Below, piece by piece: positions 31,773 to 49,272 of a DNA stretch of 64,000 nt; position 1 is the first letter of the stretch; each line of letters starts with the position of its first letter. Location: positions 14,566 to 78,565 of the forward strand of contig CAZNZL010000001.1 of assembly GCA_964577565.1 (NCBI GenBank). Direction: 5' to 3'. The notes beneath the pieces were generated by a model. That model saw only the letters and a list, made by a program, of their open reading frames with translations. It had not been told where the DNA came from and made no database searches. This DNA comes from an uncultured Candidatus Saccharibacteria bacterium. Lineage in GTDB: Bacteria; Patescibacteriota; Saccharimonadia; Saccharimonadales; JAGQNJ01. Position numbers and translations under genes: made by a program.

Positions 31773-31986
31773 GTGGTGGTTGTAACCCCGTACCTTAACA
31801 AACAATAGCAAAAGAAATTATCAAATTTCATACTTGTGTGCTATACAAGGAAGCAAAGAAAGCGCAGTGAAGCGTATATGCGATACGGTGAGCGAGCATT
31901 TCTGAAGCTGACGAAGCAGAGCGCCAAGAGTGATCGCGGTGCAGTCAGCTGAGCTGACTGGCAGGCGAGCACGGTATGAATTTTGA

Positions 31987-32008
31987 GGTCAGCTATTCGG
32001 CAGTCAAC
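31987..32008. repeat. left arm of a 22-nt inverted repeat in the mraZ-rsmH spacer
   Basis: GGTCAGCTATTCGGCAGTCAAC is complementary to 32211-32232. As RNA this gives 20 Watson-Crick pairs, 1 G-U pair and 1 mismatch. Confidence 0.85.
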
Positions 32009-32210
32009 AAGTGGGCGAAGGTAACCACTTAAAACACCTTAGCACTTTGCATAAAACACCTCCCAAAACTCCACCTCACACAAAAGTCTCTCAAACTGCA
32101 AAATTGGTAAAAAGCACAAGCGTGATTTAACCCAAATCACACTCGTTTATAGCTCTTTACTACAAAAGTTTTGCAGGCTAACAAAAACAAAAACAATCAA
32201 AAAACAAAAA

Positions 32211-32232
32211 GTTGACTGCTGAATAGGTGACC
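32211..32232. repeat. right arm of the 22-nt inverted repeat
   Basis: The sequence is GTTGACTGCTGAATAGGTGACC. It ends 29 nt upstream of the rsmH ATG. Confidence 0.85.
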
Positions 32233-32261
32233 TTACAAAACAAAAATGTAAAAATAAAAAG

Positions 32262-33152
32262 ATGAAGGATCACCAAACCAATCATCACCACCCAGTGTTG
32301 CTATATGAAGTGCTTGAGCAGCTGGCGCCAGAAAAGGGGGATAGGCTCCTTGATGTGACGGCAGGCTACGGTGGGCACGCCAGGGCAATACTGGAACGGA
32401 CAGGCCAAATGCAGAATAGCGTGCTTATTGACCGCGACATCAATGCGGTCAAGGTGCTGAAAAAGCAGTTTGCGGACCAGGGTATTGAAATCACCCATAG
32501 TGATTTTGCCCGCGCCACGAAGCAGCTTGCAGCAACAGCAAGGCGATTTGAGCTAATTTTGGCCGACCTGGGCGTTTCATCGCCGCACCTTAACAACGCA
32601 AGTAGAGGTTTCTCGTTTCAGCAAGACGGGCCACTTGATATGCGCATGGACGACTCGTTAGAGTTAACCGCTGCAGATCTCGTGAATACGTCTAGTGAAG
32701 CAGCCCTTGTTGATATGCTCCGTACGTACGGAGAAGAGCCAAAAGCAACCAAAATTGCCCAAGCAATTATTCAACACCGACCCATCGAGACAACCACACA
32801 ACTTGCACAACTTGTTACCGCCGTTTATGGGGGTAGGGGAAGATACAAAGTACACCCTGCGACCAAGACGTTTCAGGCGCTACGAATAGCTGTTAATGAC
32901 GAGCTAAACCAACTGCGCGCAGCATTGCCGCTCTGGCTTGATATGCTGGCCTCAGGAGGTAGAATTGCTATCATTAGCTTTCATAGCCTTGAAGATCGCA
33001 TAGTCAAACAAATATTACAGGACAATGCCGGTAACCGCTACGACGCAACGATTACCGTACTAACCAAAAAACCAGTTGTGTCAGGCAAAGAAGAACTAGT
33101 TTTCAATCCGCGAGCTCGGAGTGCTAAGCTCAGAGCCGCAGTGAAAAAATAA
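32262..33152 (+). CDS. rsmH: 16S rRNA (cytosine1402-N4)-methyltransferase
   Basis: HHPVLLYEVLEQL, DVTAGYGGHA, ADLGVSSPHL and SFHSLEDRIVK are present. Confidence 0.95.
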   Translation: MKDHQTNHHHPVLLYEVLEQLAPEKGDRLLDVTAGYGGHARAILERTGQMQNSVLIDRDINAVKVLKKQFADQGIEITHSDFARATKQLAATARRFELILADLGVSSPHLNNASRGFSFQQDGPLDMRMDDSLELTAADLVNTSSEAALVDMLRTYGEEPKATKIAQAIIQHRPIETTTQLAQLVTAVYGGRGRYKVHPATKTFQALRIAVNDELNQLRAALPLWLDMLASGGRIAIISFHSLEDRIVKQILQDNAGNRYDATITVLTKKPVVSGKEELVFNPRARSAKLRAAVKK

Positions 33153-39719: not shown

Positions 39720-40367
39720 CGTATTATTGCGTGGGCAGTGAGCCGCGTGTAAATTTAGAAAGCATACAACATAAACGTTTTGTGGCTGCACCCTCTCTGC
39801 TTTTCTCTCTTTTGAATGTTCGTAATTTGTTCATTGTGTGTTTGAATCACGCATTGAAAACTATATAAAACTATCAAAAACGTGAAAAATCAAATAGTAT
39901 GCGTGAAAATAGCAGGGCACGAGCAAAAACATATAAAACATAACAAAAATAGTAAAATGCAAATAATGTTGTGGAAAACTTTGCAAAAAGCACAAAAAAC
40001 GACATAGATACCGTTTAAGAGCATGCAGTAATAAATTGTTAACTAAGCATAGATAAATAGGCTATCAAACACGTTAAATGATAGAATTTGCGTACTACTC
40101 CCCTATATGAGATGTATCAATAGTCATCTATAAATACGTATACAAAGTCGCAAAATATACATTGTGCGACGTACTATCACTATGTCAGGGGGAAGCCCTA
40201 TTTTGCTGTTTTCAATCATTATTTCATTACTTATGATTCTGGTTTTGTATTTTTTGTGCCCTTTTGCTTTATGCAAGTTTACTGTGTTTTTAGTTGCCTT
40301 TATGTATTTACTCTAAACTCGTTGATTATTACAATGTTCGCAAAATGTTTATAAAAAATAAAACATT

Positions 40368-40916
40368 TTAAGCACGCATGTGATTGCGGCTGTGTGCATC
40401 AGAATGGCGCCGTAGCCGTGGTTCTATATCTACCATGACCCAATCATGGTCTTGTAGCTCGCCATCTTCCCTTGCCTGTCCGAATATAAACTGCTCATTT
40501 TTAAGATCTATAAGCATGCCGTTATGATTTCGGTACCGAAAAATACCAAAGCGCACATGAAATGGTAGGTGTTTGGGTCTAACATCTTTAACGAGGGCTA
40601 CTCGAGCAGCCAGAATGCGGCCCTCGGGCATCAGCGAGGGGTCATGATAGGGAGCAATATGAGGTCGATCTAACACCGGATAGAGCCCAAACTCGTGCTC
40701 GACAACTTTCGCGCCACAATAGTGGCGTACCTTATCAAATTCTTCTGCGGCAATACGTAGGCGCTCAGCAAGACTCACGTGTGGGTCAGCAACCGTTTGT
40801 ATGCGCCGCAATATACTTTCTTGATCTAAATCACCAACTTCTTTTAATTGTGGCTTGTGTAAGTAAATATGCTCTTCAGGATCAAACTCTGGCAAATCCA
40901 GCCCGTAAAATTTCAT
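40368..40916 (-). CDS. hypothetical protein, paralog A of an unrecognised family
   Basis: 182 aa. It shares GxxPxFxP at the N-terminus, CGAxVVxHxxGL in the middle and VDIEP near the C-terminus with the gene immediately upstream. The ATG lies 1 nt after that gene's stop (TGAAATG). Confidence 0.6.
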   Translation of the reverse strand: MKFYGLDLPEFDPEEHIYLHKPQLKEVGDLDQESILRRIQTVADPHVSLAERLRIAAEEFDKVRHYCGAKVVEHEFGLYPVLDRPHIAPYHDPSLMPEGRILAARVALVKDVRPKHLPFHVRFGIFRYRNHNGMLIDLKNEQFIFGQAREDGELQDHDWVMVDIEPRLRRHSDAHSRNHMRA

Positions 40917-40917
40917 T

Positions 40918-41502
40918 TCAGAAACCCCCGCCTTGCTTTTGGCGAAACACAGGCTCGATATCTACTAAAAACAGAGTAGGGTCAGTTTGGTCAGGATTAT
41001 TTGTATTACACCCATACATAAATTGAAACGGTTTCATATCATAAAGGTGGCTCCTGCGTATACGGTTCAAGGGGCGGTTGTAGCGTGCCAAACCTTCATG
41101 AACCTGTTCTTGTATACTCATTGGCAAACTCGCTGAAGAATCAATGCATCTAGGTACCGTAGCACCATCGATATAGTCTACTTTTGCAACCAGTCTTAAA
41201 CCGACATAATTGTTCCAAGGTAGTTTTGGGTACGTAGAACTGGCCAATCCCCAGGTGTGGGGTACAACTTCTGCGCCACACAAGTCTGCGCATTTTTGTA
41301 GTTCTTTGTCAGTAGTAGCGAGCGTGTGCTGAAGTGATTTTAATGAAAAATACGGCGGATAGACATCTATATCACGTACGAATTGCTTTGGTACTGATTC
41401 AGGACTTGATACCGTAGTACTCAGCTCTGCTGCAAGACACCGGCTTAATACCCTCGCATCGCCTGGTTCAAACCCGGGTATAGCACCGAGGCTCTTAACA
41501 AT
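40918..41502 (-). CDS. hypothetical protein, paralog B of the same family, with no canonical start codon
   Basis: The frame is open from 41529 down to the stop at 40918. It aligns with paralog A from about codon position 41499 onward (KSLGAIPGFEPGD vs KFYGLDLPEFDPEE). The first ATG, GTG or TTG in frame is the TTG at 41283. An ATT at 41502-41500 overlaps the upstream TAA. Confidence 0.45.
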   Translation of the reverse strand: MVKSLGAIPGFEPGDARVLSRCLAAELSTTVSSPESVPKQFVRDIDVYPPYFSLKSLQHTLATTDKELQKCADLCGAEVVPHTWGLASSTYPKLPWNNYVGLRLVAKVDYIDGATVPRCIDSSASLPMSIQEQVHEGLARYNRPLNRIRRSHLYDMKPFQFMYGCNTNNPDQTDPTLFLVDIEPVFRQKQGGGF

Positions 41503-42542
41503 TAGTCCTCGGCGAGGGCGTAGGTGGCTTTAGCAACGCGCTTAAATTGCTTTTTGCCTTGTAGGTTCAATAAAATCGTCGTTTCTTTAACGTAACGGGT
41601 TTTAAGTACGTTCTTAACAATCTCGTCACGGTGCAGTGGTTCACCTGCCTTTTTCAAGATGTCGGCAATAACGTCAGATACGGTGCCCTTTTTGTAACCC
41701 CATTCTTTCAGGGCGTAAATGCCTCGCCCTACGAGCACAAAGCGATCGTCTTTGATGAGCTCGTTGTGAATGGCTTGCGTCGTGACATCTTTACGCTTAA
41801 AACTAGAGGCTTTAATTTTTTTGGCAATGTCACTAAAGTGCATTTGCTTGCCGTTTTCTTTCAAAATAACGTAAATTTTGTCGCGAATGTTTTTAGGGTT
41901 AACGGTTGGCCACTTGGTAAGACCCCACACGCCGTTTAAGTGTGCCAGTTGTTTTGACAGGCTTGCTAAGGCCTCTGTCTTAGCCGCTTCGGCTTCGTTC
42001 ATGGCTTTGGCTACGTCTTCAATTGCTGAAGGCTTGCCAATCTCTTTAATGGCCTTAACAACCTTATCAACTTGTTGTGTTACTGCTTTATTGTCGCGAT
42101 ATGTCTTTTTAACAGCTACACCTTGGTGATAAAAGTCGTTTTCATCTACGGTAACAAGCTCAGGGCACAGCGCACATAAAAAAGCTACCCTTGCCTGGTT
42201 AACCTTGCTATCGTCTCCTGTCAGTTCTTTTGATAAAACACTAATTCGTTTGGCTTGGCCGGTTTTTTGTAGCATTTCAGTGACCGTTGCCTGTACCTCT
42301 TTTACATGAGGGACACTCCCCTGCTCTGCCTGGTTTTTAAGACGAGTGATAATAGCTTTTTCTAGCTGACGGACGCGCTCACGGGTAATGCCTAATAGTT
42401 CACCAATTTGCTCGAGCGTTTCTTTGCGGTCAAAAAGACCATAGCGCCTTGATACAATCTCGCGTTCACGCTCTTTCTCGATGGTTGCGAGTATGTCTTT
42501 GGTAATTTGTTCCACTGGTAACGTGTTAGTTTCGGTAGTCAT
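41502..42542 (-). CDS. sigma-70 region 4-like plus HARE-HTH domain DNA-binding protein
   Basis: The N-terminal part reads RYGLFDRKETLEQIGELLGITRERVRQLEKAIITRLK, a sigma region 4 HTH. The C-terminal part reads MHFSDIAKKIK...IHNELIKDDRFVLVGRGIYALKEWGY, a HARE-HTH-like pattern as in the RNA polymerase delta subunit N-domain. Confidence 0.65.
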   Translation of the reverse strand: MTTETNTLPVEQITKDILATIEKEREREIVSRRYGLFDRKETLEQIGELLGITRERVRQLEKAIITRLKNQAEQGSVPHVKEVQATVTEMLQKTGQAKRISVLSKELTGDDSKVNQARVAFLCALCPELVTVDENDFYHQGVAVKKTYRDNKAVTQQVDKVVKAIKEIGKPSAIEDVAKAMNEAEAAKTEALASLSKQLAHLNGVWGLTKWPTVNPKNIRDKIYVILKENGKQMHFSDIAKKIKASSFKRKDVTTQAIHNELIKDDRFVLVGRGIYALKEWGYKKGTVSDVIADILKKAGEPLHRDEIVKNVLKTRYVKETTILLNLQGKKQFKRVAKATYALAED

Positions 42543-42631
42543 TACACTTCTCTACTATCCTATTTAATATAATGTACATATAAATTATAAACTAATAACT
42601 ATAAAAGTCAAGAGTTTTATTACTATGACTT

Positions 42632-42640
42632 ATTATAGCA
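42632..42640 (-). promoter_or_regulatory. TGCTATAAT extended -10 element on the minus strand, about 90 nt upstream of the sigma/HARE-HTH gene
   Basis: The plus strand reads attatagca, which is TGCTATAAT on the minus strand. This matches the -10 consensus seen across the window. Confidence 0.45.
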
Positions 42641-42779
42641 CTAAATAGACATTTATGCGTACTGTTGAAATAACAATACTATTACTTAATAGAGGTGCAA
42701 AAGATAAAAATATGTAGTCTAATTTACTACTTCATGATACAAAATATTTATTATTCAATAATGTATCATTAAGATCAGC

Positions 42780-43238
42780 TTAATTTTCAGAATCGATTAT
42801 CTGAAATTCACCATTCTTGCCATAACTATTTGGTTCGAAGAATTCGGGGTACATTTCGTCTTTGACACCTTTTATCTCTCGAGCTCGCTGAATGGCTGCT
42901 CGCATCTGTTCTAATTCTTTGGCTTTTTCATCTATTTCTGCTAACTCTGGCCGTAATTTACGATCCGACATACCCCTTAAATCATCTGGAATCCCATACT
43001 CTTCACCCGTAAAAGTTGTAGTATCCATATCCCTTGTTGACGGAGAAGGAATACCCGCGCGATGCAACGCATCCTGTCCAAACTGTTGTTCATAAGTTGC
43101 ATCCCCATCAGGACCTATATCAAAGCCTTTTCCAGATGCTGTTAGTTTAGGAACATTATGTAGGCCCCTTACTTCAGGCTCTTGGTGAGGGTCAATGAGT
43201 TCTCCTCTTGCTTCAAAATCATCATCAAATCCTGTCAT
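42780..43238 (-). CDS. hypothetical acidic protein
   Basis: 152 aa, rich in D/E, with no TM helix and no family recognised. TATAAA on the minus strand (43251-43246) lies 7 nt upstream of the ATG, a leaderless-type geometry. Confidence 0.5.
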   Translation of the reverse strand: MTGFDDDFEARGELIDPHQEPEVRGLHNVPKLTASGKGFDIGPDGDATYEQQFGQDALHRAGIPSPSTRDMDTTTFTGEEYGIPDDLRGMSDRKLRPELAEIDEKAKELEQMRAAIQRAREIKGVKDEMYPEFFEPNSYGKNGEFQIIDSEN

Positions 43239-43938
43239 ATGAAAATTTATACCAGAAAAATAGAATAATTCAATACCTTTCTTTCGCCTGCATTAGAACG
43301 GGCTTCGACAATCTCTTTCTCGTATTACATAGAAATATTCCAATTTTCTCAGTAAAAAACCCAGCCTTGTTCTCTTTTGTTTCGGCAAATTTATTCCCAT
43401 TTTCTGTCCGGCCGGACAAGTTTTGTGAATACTTATTCTTTCACTCGCTTGCTAACACAAGCTATCAGCGACCCACTTTTCTCAGTAGCAAGAAAAGATG
43501 GGGCAAAAGTGCCACTGGCAACTGAAAAACAATGATGTTCACTCACTTGTCTGGCATCCGGATTCTACGTAACGACCCGCCAGCTGGCGGGGTCGCCCGT
43601 CAGTAGCCGGGTGAGCCTCGAATCACGGTATACCAGACTACGTTCATTCTTTTCAGTTTTTCAGAGCCAGATAAGCTTAAAGCAATATGTGGCTTGGTTT
43701 GCTCCTGGTACAAGGTGCGTCAAAAATACAATTATAGTCTGAGGACTTCCCGGCAGTTGCCGGGCGACCGTTAGGGAGTTGTCCGAAGCATTGTATTTAT
43801 TGACAAGCACCTTGCCAAGAGTAAACCATTGCCACGAGGGGTTTTGCCTTCTTTTGACCCAGCTGCAAAAGGAGGTCGCCTACAGCTCACGGAGTGAGCG
43901 GGGCGAAATACTTATGATAATTCAAATACTTTTATTGT

Positions 43939-43993
43939 CTTCGCTTTCGTCCTTTTGGACTCATCAGCGTAAGTACACACTTACGGAGCGAAG
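43939..43993 (-). ncRNA. hammerhead self-cleaving ribozyme, type III topology
   Basis: The minus strand reads CUUCGCU-C-CGUAAG-UGUGUA-CUUACG-CUGAUGA-GUCC-AAAA-GGAC-GAA-AGCGAAG. The complete conserved core is present (CUGAUGA, GAA, the A15.1-U16.1 pair, C17). Stem I has 6 bp, stem II has 4 bp starting with a G-C pair, and the open stem III has 7 bp. Confidence 0.85.
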
Positions 43994-44094
43994 ATGACAA
44001 GAAGACAATAGTTTAGGAACAGAAGAAGTGGCAATGAGAGCCAAACGTCTGAGAAAACCCCAAACTACTCTCTGCTTGCCACCGTCGCTGGTGA

Positions 44095-44568
44095 TCAGTC
44101 GCCGCCAATGAACGAGTAGTCCGCGTCCATCACGCCGCCCTGACGAGTCATCTCGTTCCGGCAGATGGCGATGATGGCAGAAGCCATCCACTCGGCGATC
44201 ATCTCATCAAAGACAGCTTGGACGCCGCTGAAAGCGACGATCAGCCCGTCACGGATGACGCTGCCGCCCCACTTGACGTCGCCGTCTTGCAGCAGGTGCG
44301 GTGCACGCTGCTGAACCTCGCGGCTCGACATCTTCGTTCGCTTGGAGAGCTGCGCCTTGGCATGGGCGATGCGCTTGTACTTGTCGTCATCGCGCGTGCC
44401 ATTGGTCTCGATGGTCTCCGTGAAGAGGACACTGCCATCGCGAGGGTGGAGCACCACGATGGTTCCGGCTAGCTTGTTGGTCACGCCGTCATTACGAGCG
44501 GCATTGACCCCTTGGCGAACCATACACCATGCAAGGTCGCAGATTTCCTCGGAAATTCCTCGGTACAT
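44095..44568 (-). CDS. GC-rich ORF, possible GlcG/HbpS-like (DUF336) protein
   Basis: WGGSVIRDGLIVAFSGVQAVFDEMIAEW resembles the DUF336 core GGxPxxxDGxxIGAxGVSG..xxDxxxA. Hand counts of three 60-nt lines give 38, 32 and 40 G+C, against 25 of 60 in a topA line. Both strands carry long shadow ORFs, as expected for high GC. I prefer the ATG at 44568 (MYRGISEE) over the TTG at 44592. Confidence 0.45.
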   Translation of the reverse strand: MYRGISEEICDLAWCMVRQGVNAARNDGVTNKLAGTIVVLHPRDGSVLFTETIETNGTRDDDKYKRIAHAKAQLSKRTKMSSREVQQRAPHLLQDGDVKWGGSVIRDGLIVAFSGVQAVFDEMIAEWMASAIIAICRNEMTRQGGVMDADYSFIGGD

Positions 44569-44718
44569 GCTTGTCTCATCTCTGTGACTCAACTGTGTTA
44601 ACAGTGAGACAAAAAGCTTAAAAGTTAAGCCCTTTATCTCACCGCTAACAATAAACTATGTCTGCTTGTCAAATAACAGGGGTGGAATAGATATAATTAC
44701 TCAACACCCTATACTTAT

Positions 44719-44748
44719 ATTATAGCATAGATAGTAGTTAAATGTCAA
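44719..44748 (-). promoter_or_regulatory. sigma-70 promoter on the minus strand (TTGACA, 18 nt spacer, TATAAT, with TGC before the -10) upstream of the GC-rich ORF
   Basis: The minus strand reads TTGACAtttaactactatctatgcTATAAT. Confidence 0.55.
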
Positions 44749-44776
44749 TAGCCATTCAGGGGTGAGAGGTACCAAC

Positions 44777-47065
44777 TTATTTCTTGGTGGCTCTTTTTGG
44801 GAATCTGCGGCGTTTGGCTGGCGCGTCAGCTAACAGTTTTTTGGCTTGGTCTTCTGTTACCTTCTCTGGCTTGACGTCATCAGGTATTTTGGCATTCTTT
44901 TTACCGTCGGTAATATACGGGCCATAGGGGCCGTTTAATACTTTAATGGTGCCAAAATCAGCGATGTTGCGCTTTTTATCTTTGGCAAGTTTCTCTTTGT
45001 ACAGTTTACGTGCCGCTTCTTCTTTGATGGTAAACGGATCATGCGGTTCTTTTAACGAAACAAACGTTTTGTCTACCTTAATGTATGGCCCAAAACGCCC
45101 AATATCAGCCGTAATCTCTTGACCGTCAGCAGTTTTACCGACCACGCGAGGTAACTTAAACATTTTTAGGGCTTCTTCAAGCGTGACTTCTTTAATGTCG
45201 CGACCGGCGGGCATGGGCGCAAATTGTGGTTTTTCTTCATCCTCTACGTCGCCGATTTGCAGCATCGGGCCATACTTGCCGTAGCGTGCAATAACCGGCT
45301 TGCCGGTTTTAGGGTCCTTGCCGAGTTTGCGGCTTTGCGAGGCAACATCACGCGGTACGTCTTCTGCCTTCTTAATTAACGGATGAAAATCTTTATAAAA
45401 TTTAGCGAGCATAGCCTGCCACTTAATTTTGCCGTCTGCAATCTTGTCAAACTCATCTTCAACCTCGGCCGTAAAGCCATAATCTAAGATATCTTCAAAG
45501 TTCTTTACTAAAAAGTCGGTCACCTGTTCTGCTAAAAAGGTCGGCATTAATTTATTGCGGTCAGCGCCGTAGGTTTGCGTATCTTGTTTTTCAGTTACCT
45601 TGTTTTTGGCGAGCGTTAATACTGTGACTTCGCGTTCTTCGCCCTCGGTGTCGCGCTTTTCTACGTACCCGCGGTCTTGGATGGTGCTGATGGTAGGAGC
45701 GTACGTACTTGGCCGGCCAATGCCAAGCTCCTCTAGCTTTTTAACTAGACTGGCCTCTGAATAACGCGCTGGTGCTTTTTTAAACTGCTCGGTTGAGATA
45801 ACTTGGCTAAGATCAACTGTTTGGCCTTCTGTGAGTTCTGGTAGCAGGCTGTCTTTTTGCCCGACGCTGTAAACTTTTATAAAGCCATCAAACTGTAAAA
45901 TTTCACCTTTCGCCAAGAAAGTTTCTTTGCGGGTACTGGGCGTAATAATGGCTTCAGTACGTTCGACTTTGGCGGCGGCCATTTGGCTGGCGACGGCTCG
46001 CTGCCAGATCAAACGGTATAACTTTTTGCTCTGCTCGGTCTTACCTGCACTGGTGGTGCTAATACTCGTGGGCCGAATGGCTTCGTGGGCTTCTTGGGCG
46101 CCCTTTGATTTGGTGGCGAATTTTCGGTTTTCTAGATACTTATCGCCAAACGTCTTTTTAACGTAATCAGTTATTGCCGTAATGGCGGTCTGCGACAGAT
46201 TGGTGCTATCGGTACGCATATAAGTAATGTGGCCGCTTTCATATAGTTCTTGGGCGAGGCGCATGGTTTGCCGTACGCTGTAACCGAGCCGTTGTGAGGC
46301 GATTTGTTGTAAGGTGCTGGTGGTAAACGGTGCGGAAGGGTTACGCGAGGCTGGCTTGTTTGTCACGCTGCTAACGGTAAAATCGGCCTTAACAATATCT
46401 TCTAAAAACTTTTTTGCCTTTTTGTTGTCGTCAAAGCGGACGCTTAACTCGGCATCAAAGGTGCCTTTGGCTGCCTTAAAGGTGCCTATCGTCTTAAAGA
46501 AGGTTTCTTTGGCAAAGTTTTCGATCTCGCGCTCGCGCTCAACAATTAAACGCACAGCTACGGATTGTACACGGCCGGCACTAAGGCCGGTTTTGACTTT
46601 CTTCCAGAGTACCGGGCTAAGCTCATACCCTACTAAGCGATCCAGCACGCGGCGAGCTTGCTGTGCGTCGACCAGTTTAATATCAACGTTACGCGGCTTG
46701 GCCACGGCGGCCTCAATAGCTGGTTTGGTAATCTCGTGAAAGACAATGCGCTTGGTTTTTTTAGCGTCAAGATTTAGGGCTGAGCATAAATGCCACGCAA
46801 TGGCTTCGCCTTCGCGGTCTTCATCGCTGGCGAGCCAGACAGTTTTGCCTTTAGCGGCTTTTTTAAGCTCATTCACCACCTTTTTCTTATCTTCAGAAAT
46901 TTCGTAGGTTGGCTCAAAATTTTTCTCAATATCAACCGAGATGCCTTTACTTGGAAGGTCTCTAATGTGCCCAAAACTACTCTTAACGGTAAAGTCTTTG
47001 CCTAAATAATTGGCAATGGTCTTAGCTTTGGCTGGGCTCTCAACAATGACTAAGTTTTTGCTCAT
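44777..47065 (-). CDS. topA: DNA topoisomerase I
   Basis: The Toprim N-terminus is present (LVIVESPAKAKTIANYLG), along with the active-site region ITYMRTDS and a C-terminal Lys-rich tail. 762 aa. Confidence 0.95.
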   Translation of the reverse strand: MSKNLVIVESPAKAKTIANYLGKDFTVKSSFGHIRDLPSKGISVDIEKNFEPTYEISEDKKKVVNELKKAAKGKTVWLASDEDREGEAIAWHLCSALNLDAKKTKRIVFHEITKPAIEAAVAKPRNVDIKLVDAQQARRVLDRLVGYELSPVLWKKVKTGLSAGRVQSVAVRLIVEREREIENFAKETFFKTIGTFKAAKGTFDAELSVRFDDNKKAKKFLEDIVKADFTVSSVTNKPASRNPSAPFTTSTLQQIASQRLGYSVRQTMRLAQELYESGHITYMRTDSTNLSQTAITAITDYVKKTFGDKYLENRKFATKSKGAQEAHEAIRPTSISTTSAGKTEQSKKLYRLIWQRAVASQMAAAKVERTEAIITPSTRKETFLAKGEILQFDGFIKVYSVGQKDSLLPELTEGQTVDLSQVISTEQFKKAPARYSEASLVKKLEELGIGRPSTYAPTISTIQDRGYVEKRDTEGEEREVTVLTLAKNKVTEKQDTQTYGADRNKLMPTFLAEQVTDFLVKNFEDILDYGFTAEVEDEFDKIADGKIKWQAMLAKFYKDFHPLIKKAEDVPRDVASQSRKLGKDPKTGKPVIARYGKYGPMLQIGDVEDEEKPQFAPMPAGRDIKEVTLEEALKMFKLPRVVGKTADGQEITADIGRFGPYIKVDKTFVSLKEPHDPFTIKEEAARKLYKEKLAKDKKRNIADFGTIKVLNGPYGPYITDGKKNAKIPDDVKPEKVTEDQAKKLLADAPAKRRRFPKRATKK

Positions 47066-47201
47066 TCGCCTGCCTTAGTATAAAATTTATGATTCTTCAG
47101 ATGTAGTTTTTGCATGACTGTGCTCATATTGCTTTAGTTTATCAAAATATTTACGATACCAAAGCGTGATAATAAGCTAAATAGATATAATATGCAAACT
47201 T

Positions 47202-48065
47202 TTAAACCAGGCGCCAGTGGTTATTGCCGAGTGGTTGTATCACGGCGTTAATTTCTAAGATAGTTAGTGTTTGGTTAAAGATTTGTGGTTCAAGCTGGCT
47301 CTCAGCAAGCAATACAGAACCATCAGTTATGCCTTGCTTTAGTAAGGTAATAAGTGCCTGTTCCTCTGCGCTATAAGCTTGTACAGTCGCTTGCTGTTTG
47401 GTATCTATACCAAGTAGATCGAGCACGTCTTTTGTGGCGGTTAATGGCAATGCTCCTGCTTTTATAAGATTGTTTGTGCCTTTGCTGAGCGGGCTGGTAA
47501 TTGGCCCTGGCACTGCCATGACCGTTTTACCTTGGTTTAAGGCAAATGATGCGGTATGGATGGTGCCGCTATTCTCTGCTGCCTCAGTTATGATGACAAT
47601 ATCACCCAAAGCTGAGACGAGACGATTTCGAGCAATAAAATTTTGCCGCAGCGGCGGTGTGCCTTCATCGAACTCGGTTAGGAGTGCGCCGCCCGTATCA
47701 ATGATTTGTTTTGCAAGACCTCGGTGAGTTGCCGGATAAACCATTTCTGGACCGCAAGGTAATACTGCGATTGTTTGGCCGTCTGCCTCAATGCAGGCTT
47801 GGTGGGCAACGCTATCGATGCCGAGCGCCAAACCGCTTATAATGACACCGCCTGACCGGGCAATTTCAGTGGCTAATTTTTGGGTCACTGCTCGACCGTA
47901 AGGTGTTGGCTTGCGGCTTCCAACAATACTTACAGTGGGCTTAAAAAGCAGTTCACGGGGGTTACTACCCCTGTAGAAAATTTGTCTTGGCGGTGCATCA
48001 ATAACGCGCAAACGTTCTGGTATCTGCTGACCTACGAGCTTATGCTTAGTATAATTATTTTGCAT
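47202..48065 (-). CDS. dprA: DNA processing protein DprA (Smf)
   Basis: VSIVGSRKPTPYG and SGLALGIDSVAHQACI are present. It lies adjacent to topA, a frequent synteny. Confidence 0.9.
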   Translation of the reverse strand: MQNNYTKHKLVGQQIPERLRVIDAPPRQIFYRGSNPRELLFKPTVSIVGSRKPTPYGRAVTQKLATEIARSGGVIISGLALGIDSVAHQACIEADGQTIAVLPCGPEMVYPATHRGLAKQIIDTGGALLTEFDEGTPPLRQNFIARNRLVSALGDIVIITEAAENSGTIHTASFALNQGKTVMAVPGPITSPLSKGTNNLIKAGALPLTATKDVLDLLGIDTKQQATVQAYSAEEQALITLLKQGITDGSVLLAESQLEPQIFNQTLTILEINAVIQPLGNNHWRLV

Positions 48066-48088
48066 GACTTACAAAATCGTTAAATAGT

Positions 48089-48117
48089 ATTGACATAATG
48101 TAACATATTTGCTAAAA
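48089..48117 (+). promoter_or_regulatory. consensus sigma-70 promoter (TTGACA, 17 nt spacer, TAAAAT, with TGC before the -10) driving the ORF-free structured region
   Basis: The sequence reads TTGACAtaatgtaacatatttgcTAAAAT. The predicted transcription start is near 48124. Confidence 0.6.
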
Positions 48118-48123
48118 TAGCAA

Positions 48124-48570
48124 CCCGTAAGTCCTTGTTAGGATTTTACGTACCTTATACCCCCATTCTAACATCCGTATTTACGGATATCGTTAGATTG
48201 TTTTAGAGCGCGCTTATTCGAGTTGTTACCCTCCACTTGGTGAGCATAAGCCGGCCTAGCCGGTAACGCTCTAAAACAGACTAACCCCTTTAACTCCCCC
48301 ACAAAAAGGCAACTTTTTGCGGGGGCCCCTGTTAATCAGGGTTCCCAATCAATGGTGAATATCAAGTATGGCTCATAGAGCCGGCGCAAGTCTTTATGGA
48401 GTTTTGGACATTGACGCTTCACCGGGGTGGGTTGAAGGGTGTATTGGTTCCCCATAAATCAAAAGCTAACGCTGAGATTTATGGGGACCCCTAGTTTTAA
48501 GGCTTGAGCGTGTGTTTGAGCCCTGAAATCGGCTTACAGCGGTGCCCACCCCCTCTGTAGGCCGTTTTTT
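48124..48570 (+). ncRNA. candidate structured ncRNA of unknown class (about 450 nt)
   Basis: A promoter lies upstream and an intrinsic terminator at the 3' end. No ORF of 60 aa or more exists in any frame. Seven local helices include two perfect 11-bp stems (48199-48209/48266-48276 and 48449-48459/48475-48485) and a 13-position stem capped by a GCAA tetraloop (48295-48324). There are many G-runs and C-runs with long-range complementarity. Confidence 0.5.
48530..48570 (+). terminator. rho-independent terminator closing the candidate ncRNA
   Basis: GGCTTACAG at 48530-48538 pairs with CTGTAGGCC at 48554-48562 (9 bp including one G-T pair). A GTTTTTTG tract follows. Confidence 0.6.
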
Positions 48571-48696
48571 GTGCCCAACCACTTTCAGTGGTCTCAGCTC
48601 TTCGTATATGGCAACAAGTTTCCATCAGAAGATGCCCTTGCAGACAGTCACCGACTGTCTTCACCCTCTAGAGGCTCTTTTAGTAGAATGATAGTT

Positions 48697-49272
48697 ATGA
48701 AAATCACTGAACAATACGAATTTACAGAACTTACACCTGAAGCAGTAGATTGCTGTGTTGAACATGGAGCAGCGAATCTTTCTGGCTTTCTTTCAGAAGC
48801 CACGCTTAGATATATCAAAGAAAGAGGTTTTCCTGTTCGGCAAGAGGTTGCAGAGACGGTTGATGCAAAACTAACTAAATTAATGAGGGTTTTCGGTATC
48901 GGCGGCTTACCTAAGGTCAGTATAGAGCAAGCCTCGCTTGTGCAAATGGCAATTGAAACTATTCCGAGCTTCGATGATCCCGCACGTCTAGACTTTCATA
49001 CTGATAGTATTCAGCGCAACGGTGTATCCTTTTTGATACCTATAAGTGGCAGTTCAGCTCGGTTTGAATTTAGGGATATAGGTGAATACGAGCCAGAGGC
49101 TGTAACCTACATGCCAGGCGACATATTGTTACTGAGGCAATATATTGAAACCTATAACGGCAGGATCATTAGACGACCTCAAATAGAACATCGCGGTATA
49201 GCACCCAGCCCGCGAAGCATCTATACTGTAGACCTACACGATAAGCATTTGGTTACTGACTTTACAGTATAA
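48697..49272 (+). CDS. hypothetical protein, possible HxD...H (cupin/2OG-oxygenase-like) fold
   Basis: DFHTDS, then about 75 aa, then IEHRG. I prefer the ATG at 48697 (MKITEQYEF) because TAGAAT at 48684-48689 lies 7 nt upstream. The longer ORF from the GTG at 48571 would start inside the terminator. Confidence 0.45.
   Translation: MKITEQYEFTELTPEAVDCCVEHGAANLSGFLSEATLRYIKERGFPVRQEVAETVDAKLTKLMRVFGIGGLPKVSIEQASLVQMAIETIPSFDDPARLDFHTDSIQRNGVSFLIPISGSSARFEFRDIGEYEPEAVTYMPGDILLLRQYIETYNGRIIRRPQIEHRGIAPSPRSIYTVDLHDKHLVTDFTV

Follow-up and report, generated by a model that had tools for sequence, protein, structure and literature searches.

Within a 64-kb stretch of a Candidatus Saccharibacteria genome assembly (the window, by which we mean the whole stretch), an interval of about 850 nt lacks genes and contains a hammerhead ribozyme together with many hairpins. 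Homologs of the proteins encoded in the window come almost only from Saccharibacteria (TM7) assemblies. All genes around the interval are on the minus strand and would be read in the order topA, a guanine-cytosine (GC)-rich open reading frame (ORF), the interval itself, an ORF for an acidic protein, and a gene with sigma-70-region-4 and HARE-HTH domains, referred to here as the sigma-like gene (Table 1). An initial annotation had treated the interval as one structured block surrounding the ribozyme and had proposed that it was a second functional RNA, the degraded remnant of a mobile or phage element by which the ribozyme and the GC-rich gene had arrived, or a long structured 3' untranslated region (UTR). 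We find that the interval is a composite of two unrelated things, namely the 3' end of a cassette (43938-44094) and a spacer, X (43239-43937).

Composition of the gene-free interval

The frames present in the interval are only short or low-complexity, and no credible ORF lies among them, as the initial annotation had held. Stop-free frames gave no match in Pfam or NCBIfam, tblastx against relatives found nothing, and no frameshifted pseudogene was recognized by these translated and family searches. Codon-position GC periodicity, which has a spread of 0.2-0.5 in both flanking ORFs, is absent from 43239-43940. The minimum free energy of the interval is -299.8 kcal/mol on the minus strand and -289.3 kcal/mol on the plus strand, compared to means of -237 and -226 kcal/mol for shuffled sequences (z = -8.8 and -8.7, respectively); 200-nt segments across the window give a background mean z of -0.4 with a standard deviation of 1.5. 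The structured core of the interval is 43515-43900, where z is about -5 to -7.

The individual hairpins described earlier are present: CCCGCC-AGCT-GGCGGG at 43576-43591, CCCGGC-AGTT-GCCGGG at 43749-43764, GCTCAC-GGA-GTGAGC at 43885-43899, and TGTCC-GGCC-GGACA, which lies at 43405-43418, 3 nt to the left of its first assignment to 43408-43421. The pairing of CTGAAAAAC (43522-43530) with GTTTTTCAG (43656-43664) closes an imperfect hairpin of about 150 nt. The heptamer GGTCGCC occurs at 43591 and 43874 and its reverse complement, GGCGACC, at 43763; GGTCGCC is found 9 times in 64 kb (4.55 expected), with 3 of the 9 occurrences falling in a single 290-nt part of the interval. The ribozyme does lie within the gene-free block, at one end rather than in the middle. 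Rfam searches, run on the whole window at the gathering score and on 43100-44750 and 43380-43940 at E-value thresholds, returned only a sub-threshold hammerhead and noise for this region.

The limit of homology to other loci separates the two parts. We compared the window to a fetched set of 109 loci (about 1 Mb; loci are cited by L number). The cassette aligns with L040, L039, and L030 at 82-89% nucleotide identity from about 44750 to 43939, covering promoter, leader, ORF, hairpin, and ribozyme; the homology stops at the last base pair of helix III, and the flanking genes differ at every locus. The idea that the block is a remnant of the element that delivered the ribozyme and the GC-rich gene is not supported: the cassette homology ends exactly at the ribozyme, the cassette is kept as a unit (about 44752 to 43938) in these three loci, and profile hidden Markov models of the cassette leader and 3' module find no match in the 700-nt X. 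In addition, the next gene lies within 180 nt at 11 of 12 other hammerhead loci, without unusual structure. The 400 nt downstream of these 12 hammerheads fold with z of -3.2 to +0.9, compared to -8.2 here, and X is absent from all of them. Because the other hammerheads lack X and have unremarkable folding downstream, X is not a companion of the ribozyme, and the best reading of these comparisons is that it is not part of the ribozyme element. The proposal of a long structured 3' UTR survives only for 43987-44094, a conserved hairpin with covariation that ends at the predicted hammerhead cleavage site, and fails for the remainder.

Slot content between topA and the sigma-like gene varies among relatives with a sigma-like protein 77-78% identical to that of the window. 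L098 and L104 have a native AT-rich gene of 147-149 aa and no ribozyme, L100-L102 have a cassette with a 168-aa GC-rich ORF, and L044 has a cassette with a 114-aa GC-rich ORF. A second cassette in L044 (122 aa) lies upstream of topA, such that topA has one cassette on each side. In both L044 and L100, the hammerhead directly adjoins the conserved upstream region of the sigma-like gene, which corresponds to window position 42731 and below. Alignments of L044, L098, L100, and L104 end at 42727-42733, and homology resumes at 42731/42732. Because the hammerhead abuts the equivalent of 42731 in L044 and L100, the window holds 1208 extra bases (42732-43939), made up of X, the acidic ORF and the promoter-like site that precedes it, and the hairpin that follows this ORF. 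The relatives show no conservation of X at this syntenic locus. We read the topA/sigma-like interval as a hypervariable gene slot. Three independent assemblies (L041, L042, and L043) break 20-160 nt before the variable slot; two of them are 100% identical to the window and one is from an 88% relative. Strain heterogeneity at the slot or a stretch of 23-27% GC could be the cause of these breaks.

Table 1. Coordinates of features at the locus, listed approximately in order of transcription.
Feature	Coordinates	Strand	Description
topA	47065-44777	minus	first in transcription order around the interval
Cassette promoter	44719-44748	minus	TTGACA, 18-nt spacer with TG, TATAAT; 12/12 consensus positions
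Conserved 5' leader	44569-44718	minus	hairpin P1, motif L, second hairpin 44652-44596
GC-rich ORF	44095-44568	minus	157 aa (P0001), 62% GC; true start ATG at 44568
Gene-free interval	43239-44094		between the GC-rich and acidic ORFs
Cassette 3' UTR, hairpin P0	43987-44094	minus	~105 nt, GGCAAGCAGAG...TTGTCTTCTTGTC; covariation, folding
Type III hammerhead	43938-43994	minus	Rfam RF00008 and custom model R1
X	43239-43937		lineage-specific non-coding hairpin-saturated spacer; no homolog, no coding signal
Weak direct repeat	43917-43936; other copy 43283-43265	minus	~20 nt, AATAAAAGTATTTGAATTAT; copies bracket X
Fold-back hp2	43689-43836		50-nt arms (40/45 aligned positions match) around CCCGGCAGTTGCCGGG hairpin
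Fold-back hp1	43515-43670		~150-nt imperfect hairpin closed by CTGAAAAAC/GTTTTTCAG; apex is the 16-bp perfect palindrome CCCGCCAGCTGGCGGG
Small-hairpin run	43400-43514		TGTCCGGCCGGACA, GTGAA..TTCAC, GCTTG..CAAGC, CCCAC..GTGGG-type; z -1.7 to -2.5
Promoter-like site of acidic ORF	43272-43245	minus	TTGAAT-16-TGgTATAAA, read from sequence; mRNA would be near-leaderless
Acidic ORF	42780-43238	minus	152 aa; codon periodicity spread 0.2-0.5
Hairpin after acidic ORF	42730-42773	minus	homology with relatives resumes at 42731/42732
Sigma-like gene	42542-41502	minus	sigma-70-region-4/HARE-HTH

The cassette and its hammerhead ribozyme

Across seven cassettes, RNAalifold finds 30 consensus pairs in P0, 12 of which have compensatory changes. 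Five mismatches between the P0 arms are G:U pairs on the minus strand and none are on the plus strand, and folding is stronger on the minus strand (z = -5.1, compared to -1.9 on the plus strand). The base of P0, GCGACGG, is able to pair with CAUCUUCGC, the 5' strand of hammerhead helix III.

Hammerhead ribozymes share a core of C3-U4-G5-A6-N7-G8-A9 and G12-A13-A14 and an N-U-H cleavage triplet. In the window this catalytic core is present as CUGAUGAG...CGAAA, with UC at the cleavage site and three helices, of which I and II are loop-capped and III is open; cleavage is predicted 3' of C17, between 43986 and 43985. The match to Rfam RF00008 (43945-43987, minus strand; 29.2 bits, E = 0.001) falls under the gathering score of 48.5, which we take to reflect a short helix II and loop variant rather than non-membership. 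R1, a covariance model built from ten relatives, scores the window hammerhead at 79.3 bits. Together, R1 and a motif scan recover 14 further full-length hammerheads. Two of these are duplicate assemblies of the L100 locus, and the remaining 12 are each found 3' of a GC-rich ORF that is either a homolog of the one in the window or unrelated to it. An alignment of 15 sequences shows double changes at 15 of 19 pairs, with 93.6% of cells paired, a result matched by none of 500 shuffles; slid controls gave 33-41%. The core is invariant across full-length hammerheads except for position 7 and two changes in L100. With filters off, no degenerate second hammerhead was found in 40000-48500, and no terminator-like site occurs on the minus strand between the cassette promoter and 43239.

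The exact core CTGANGAGTCCAAAAGGACGAAA (helix II GUCC-AAAA-GGAC) was also found in 48 IMG/VR viral contigs (L045-L092), so that this minimal hammerhead variant is widespread in phage-like sequences; the flanks specific to the Saccharibacteria cassettes are not. Searches of IMG/VR gave no match for the GC-rich ORF family or for two cassette-specific patterns, and there are no phage genes near the cassette.

The promoter that precedes the GC-rich ORF is also found upstream of unrelated cassette ORFs in L100, L044, L004, and others. A leader profile made from 12 other cassettes matches 44752-44566 with E = 2.3e-33, and the leader folds with z = -4.9 on the minus strand compared to -2.9 on the plus strand. 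The leader is kept ahead of unrelated ORFs in L004, L006, L008, L024, L002, L003, L040, L100, L039, L001, and L044. Its first element, P1, is a 5'-terminal hairpin with a covarying stem and a loop that begins GTTGAG and ends YTCC; the motif TTGACAAGCAGACA follows (motif L, 44672-44659 in the window) and then the second hairpin. We found no Rfam match for 44569-44752, and the leader could represent a new cis-regulatory RNA.

Motif L, extending to 18 nt, complements a segment directly 5' of the ribozyme, H3. In the window 44655-44672 is complementary to 43995-44012, and the same pair of 13-19 nt is present in 9 other cassettes. The complementarity covaries among cassettes, for example GACAAGTATTGAG/CTCAATACTTGTC in L002 and AGATAGACAGAG/CTCTGTCTATCT in L044b, and cognate duplexes have a mean of -22.1 kcal/mol compared to -15.6 kcal/mol for non-cognate ones. 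In L002, L004, and L008 the 3' segment has no local partner, which indicates that conservation lies in the long-range pairing (or inverted repeat).

Judged from these parts, the cassette is a self-contained expression unit that runs from a consensus promoter through a structured leader, the GC-rich ORF, and a long hairpin to the type III hammerhead, and it has no intrinsic terminator. We propose that the ribozyme would cut the read-through cassette transcript between 43986 and 43985, such that the cassette mRNA would end in a 2',3'-cyclic phosphate and all RNA downstream of the cut would become a separate 5'-OH molecule. Because the base of P0 can pair with the 5' strand of helix III, the new 3' end could fold into this hairpin after cleavage. 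The last nucleotides of the mRNA, which are this 5' strand, could fold back onto the base of P0, and the adjacent H3 could pair with motif L in the leader; either pairing would yield a protected 3' end. The ribozyme would thereby set the mRNA 3' end, keep that end paired, and uncouple the strongly transcribed cassette from what lies downstream.

The protein P0001 is an exact match to that of the GC-rich ORF and has 87 homologs in Saccharibacteria. The ORF has strong codon periodicity and is weakly HbpS/GlcG-like (Pfam PF03928, E = 0.005, under its cut-off). Relatives with 40-48% identity also occur in Demequina, Mycolicibacterium, and other Actinomycetota (L009-L023, L026-L029, and L031), and these copies lack a hammerhead. 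Actinomycetota are the known host phylum of Saccharibacteria. The occurrence of the ORF family in Actinomycetota, in copies without a hammerhead, suggests that the gene passed between epibiont and host and was then installed on the cassette platform. At least four unrelated small GC-rich ORFs (55-62% GC, in genomes of ~43-45% GC) occupy the same promoter/hammerhead platform; examples are 2318-2844 and 5328-5805 in L044, 5083-5796 in L100, and 44095-44568 in the window. None of these cargo ORFs belongs to a Pfam or PHROG family above threshold.

Prokaryotic hammerheads were described in a 2017 review as often flanking small non-conserved ORFs, with their role as an open question (PMC6155905). 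Like members of RF00008, the hammerhead described here has a CUGAUGA...GAAA core, an open helix III among its three helices, and UC as the cleavage dinucleotide; like bacterial hammerheads, it occupies an intergenic position beside a small, poorly conserved ORF. It differs in that there is one hammerhead per cassette, always 3' of the ORF; in that a covarying long hairpin precedes it and may compete for the 5' strand of helix III; and in its coupling to a promoter and a leader in which motif L complements sequence 5' of the ribozyme. The fixed architecture, the competition for helix III, and the covarying complementarity of leader and 3' end are absent from that review (PMC6155905) and from the titles found in our literature searches.

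Integron cassettes also place unrelated small ORFs in one slot, each followed by an imperfect hairpin with a conserved base. They differ in that each cassette described here has its own promoter and a ribozyme after the hairpin. The attC cores are R'' RYYYAAC and R' GTTRRRY; the P0 base, GRCAAGCAGA/TCTGCTTGTC, is unlike these. We rejected P0 as an attC site, given a base of GGCAAGCAGA/TCTTCTTGTC that does not resemble these cores and the lack of an integrase among the flanking genes.

Origin of the spacer X

Searches for relatives of X were negative wherever they were made. Neither X (by blastn, nhmmer, and tblastx) nor the whole 1.2-kb extra segment has a homolog in the 109 loci or the rest of the window, and distant-mode blastn of X against phages and 72,556 plasmids gave no match. 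Scans of IMG/VR with two X patterns found nothing, none of the 48 viral contigs with the generic hammerhead core contains anything like X, and a metagenome pattern scan with GACCCGCCNNNNGGCGGGGTCGCCCG returned 5 matches, all due to chance and inside 70%-GC coding DNA. A tblastn search for a remnant of the native slot gene of L098 and L104 was negative. Against Rfam 15, the best match was group-II-D1D4-3 at 16-21 bits (gathering score 32), and all others had E > 0.1. We rejected a group II intron on the grounds that only this D1-D4 match and no domain V were found, and likewise a tRNA or tmRNA, none of which occurs in 40000-49000. The skew profile was not decisive for a replication terminus or a dif site.

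The internal architecture of X consists mainly of two fold-backs. The arms of hp1 match at 41 of 56 positions, and its folding is similarly strong on the plus (z = -6.7) and minus (z = -5.9) strands. As DNA, hp2 folds at -38.7 kcal/mol (z = -7.1), and as RNA at -101 kcal/mol on the plus strand compared to -89.5 kcal/mol on the minus strand. A promoter-like TTGGCA-17-TACAAT lies in the hp2 stem (43818-43790, minus strand) and the partner arm contains CTGGTA-16-TACAAT, both as consensus matches only. The two fold-backs are not copies of one element, having only a 21-nt apex similarity. In local alignment, the left half of X is similar to its right half read as reverse complement (z = 4.3), which accounts for the mirror-placed GGTCGCC and GGCGACC. 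X as a whole folds as single-stranded DNA (ssDNA) with z = -8.0, and the two RNA strands are just as extreme in stability as the ssDNA. G:U mismatches in its arms have no strand bias, unlike those in P0. The direct repeat that brackets X aligns at 17 of 20 positions (shuffle p of about 0.013), which is suggestive only, and no short target-site duplication was seen at the ends of hp1 or hp2. At 47-51%, the GC content of the X core is intermediate between the average for the genome and that of the cassette ORFs, and there is no second copy of X in the 64-kb window or the 109 loci.

X is an unclassifiable orphan with fold-back anatomy. With a probability of about one half, we consider X to be either a lineage-specific insertion of fold-back or inverted-duplication type or a scar left by recombination, located in a hypervariable slot. 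It would be a non-coding insertion of ~650-700 nt, either of fold-back DNA resembling miniature inverted-repeat transposable elements (MITEs) or left as a scar; we infer both this origin and its neutrality. In structure X is a degenerate inverted duplication with two 150-nt fold-backs, small perfect palindromes, and mirror heptamers, and on this reading its folding would be a property of the DNA rather than an RNA fold under selection. If the cassette promoter drives transcription of X, it would be a 5'-OH cleavage by-product and a spacer before the acidic gene, which would use its own promoter. Fold-back elements are recognized by inverted-repeat arms and a lack of coding capacity, and X has both. 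Like MITEs and fold-back elements, it contains 150-nt units with imperfect inverted-repeat arms, lies between genes without coding for protein itself, and is missing where the orthologous site is found in relatives. It differs from MITEs in being single-copy in 64 kb, and no target-site duplication, related transposase, or family members were found.

Several points weigh against an insertion or scar without function. With X single-copy in the 64 kb and no clear target-site duplication seen, the MITE label is tentative. The absence of homologs applies to about 1 Mb of loci, phages, plasmids, and exact-pattern scans, the genome collection having been scanned only for the GC-rich ORF family, and copies of X could exist elsewhere, including in the source genome outside the window. 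The imperfect but maintained hairpins, the 10/12 promoter match in hp2, and the perfect palindromes could reflect function, and a structured gap in the same window (48080-48295) is conserved, indicating that structure here can mean function. In addition, the ribozyme that marks the boundary of X scores under the Rfam threshold (29.2 compared to 48.5 bits).

The most serious alternative, which we consider unlikely though worth keeping in view, is that X is a functional minus-strand structured RNA, either a stand-alone non-coding RNA that the hammerhead releases with a 5'-OH end or a long 5' UTR that regulates the acidic ORF. The neighboring genes all share the minus strand, the stretch from the cassette promoter to X has no terminator, and after cleavage the X RNA would begin with the ribozyme body. 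The minus-strand z of -8.2 to -8.8 fits this proposal, and in the same cassette both the leader and the 3' UTR are clearly structured at the level of RNA. However, the minus strand of X folds no better than the plus strand, hp2 is more stable on the plus strand, and there is no G:U strand bias and no Rfam match. X is also missing at the same locus in relatives and at the 12 other hammerhead loci, and immediately upstream of the acidic ORF is a promoter-like site of its own.

That acidic ORF is probably a real gene. Its protein has no homolog among 5.8e9 proteins or in a full HMMER search of 1.84e9 representatives, no PHROG, Pfam, or NCBIfam family, and no IMG/VR match, and an AlphaFold2 model of it was uninformative (predicted local distance difference test score, 57.7; no recognizable fold).

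The acidic ORF also figures in an improbable second alternative, in which X is regulatory DNA. A promoter in hp2 would be rebuilt in the single-stranded plus strand, as in Frpo or ssi elements, or X would be an ordinary promoter with palindromic operators; in the Frpo-like variant, the promoter would allow incoming ssDNA to express the acidic orphan protein. In Frpo elements, which are located upstream of early anti-defence genes, a long ssDNA hairpin has the -35 and -10 sequences in its stem (PMC11541004). Similarly, hp2 is a long ssDNA hairpin with -35/-10-like hexamers in its stem (TTGGCA-17-TACAAT, the other arm retaining TACAAT), and it precedes the gene for a small acidic protein. The plus strand, which serves as template for the acidic ORF, folds as ssDNA with z of -7 to -8, and perfect palindromes of 14-16 bp are present. 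X differs from these elements in being chromosomal, beside topA and the sigma-like gene, with no similarity to plasmids and no oriT, conjugation, or transfer genes nearby. The -35 of the surrogate arm is poor (CTGGTA), the idea depends wholly on consensus matches, and ~545 nt of hairpins separate the promoter from the acidic ORF, which has a closer promoter-like site and encodes a protein without a recognizable fold.

A broader proposal begins from the cassettes rather than from X. They could form an undescribed Saccharibacteria platform that swaps unrelated GC-rich cargo, some of it shared with hosts, at fixed slots. Its parts would be the promoter, leader, cargo, hairpin, and hammerhead, with the covarying 13-19-nt complementarity of leader and 3' end enclosing the cargo. 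X would then be functional or itself cargo, that is, non-coding cargo or a fold-back that entered at a recombination point of the platform directly 3' of the ribozyme, or an RNA or single-strand promoter of the acidic gene. The conjunction of all of these claims is, in our judgment, also improbable.

Decay of a protein-coding gene or of an earlier cassette would suit a slot that has different genes in different genomes, as well as the intermediate GC content of the X core (47-51%) and the presence at 43801 of TGACAAGCA, which recalls the leader motif. We nevertheless regard decay as very unlikely. Codon periodicity is absent from X; searches with tblastx and tblastn and of Pfam and NCBIfam were negative; the leader and 3'-module profiles miss X; no degenerate hammerhead was found with filters off; and a z of about -8 would be left unexplained. 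Least credible of all is a chimeric or fold-back join in this metagenome-assembled genome: two independent short-read assemblies identical to the window end at 42574 and 42621 and the contig of a relative ends at the equivalent of 42710, but the arms of X are imperfect (73-89% identical, with indels), unlike artefactual palindromes, the contigs break in a 23-27% GC stretch that is liable to break assemblies anyway, and X has ordinary flanks, since it lies between a complete hammerhead and a periodic ORF.

Other structured gaps and implications

Other gaps in the window are also structured. Between the dprA-like gene and the next gene, 48066-48570 folds with z = -6.1 and has no Rfam match at E <= 1. 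Within it, relatives with proteins about 77% identical retain 80-88% identity across 48080-48295; the sequence of this segment is unrelated to X, and the segment is probably an unannotated conserved non-coding RNA, judged by this conservation. The gap of ~490 nt upstream of the gene at 32262 (31773-32261) is equally structured (plus-strand z = -6.1), contains a 28-nt inverted repeat (31981-32008 and 32211-32238), and has no Rfam family at the gathering score. Because two other gaps are equally structured and one of them is conserved, structure alone cannot separate function from accident here. In a further gap, 39720-40367, where gene orientation switches from plus to minus, ~105 nt (40096-40202) are 82-83% identical in L043 and L044, which is conserved for non-coding DNA.

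For X, the value of this analysis is mostly negative. X should not be annotated as part of a ribozyme element or as a conserved RNA, and it shows that an extreme folding z-score can arise from inverted duplication at the level of DNA. The cassette is of broader interest, in that the locus bears on the open role of bacterial hammerheads beside small, poorly conserved ORFs (PMC6155905). The arrangement is clean and testable: a unit that runs from promoter to ribozyme holds unrelated cargo, the ribozyme is always its exact 3' boundary, a hairpin could trap the cleaved 3' end, and the content of the slot differs between close relatives. Saccharibacteria are reduced, competence-dependent epibionts. 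The cassettes described here point to ribozyme-defined mRNA 3' ends in the expression of acquired genes by these epibionts.

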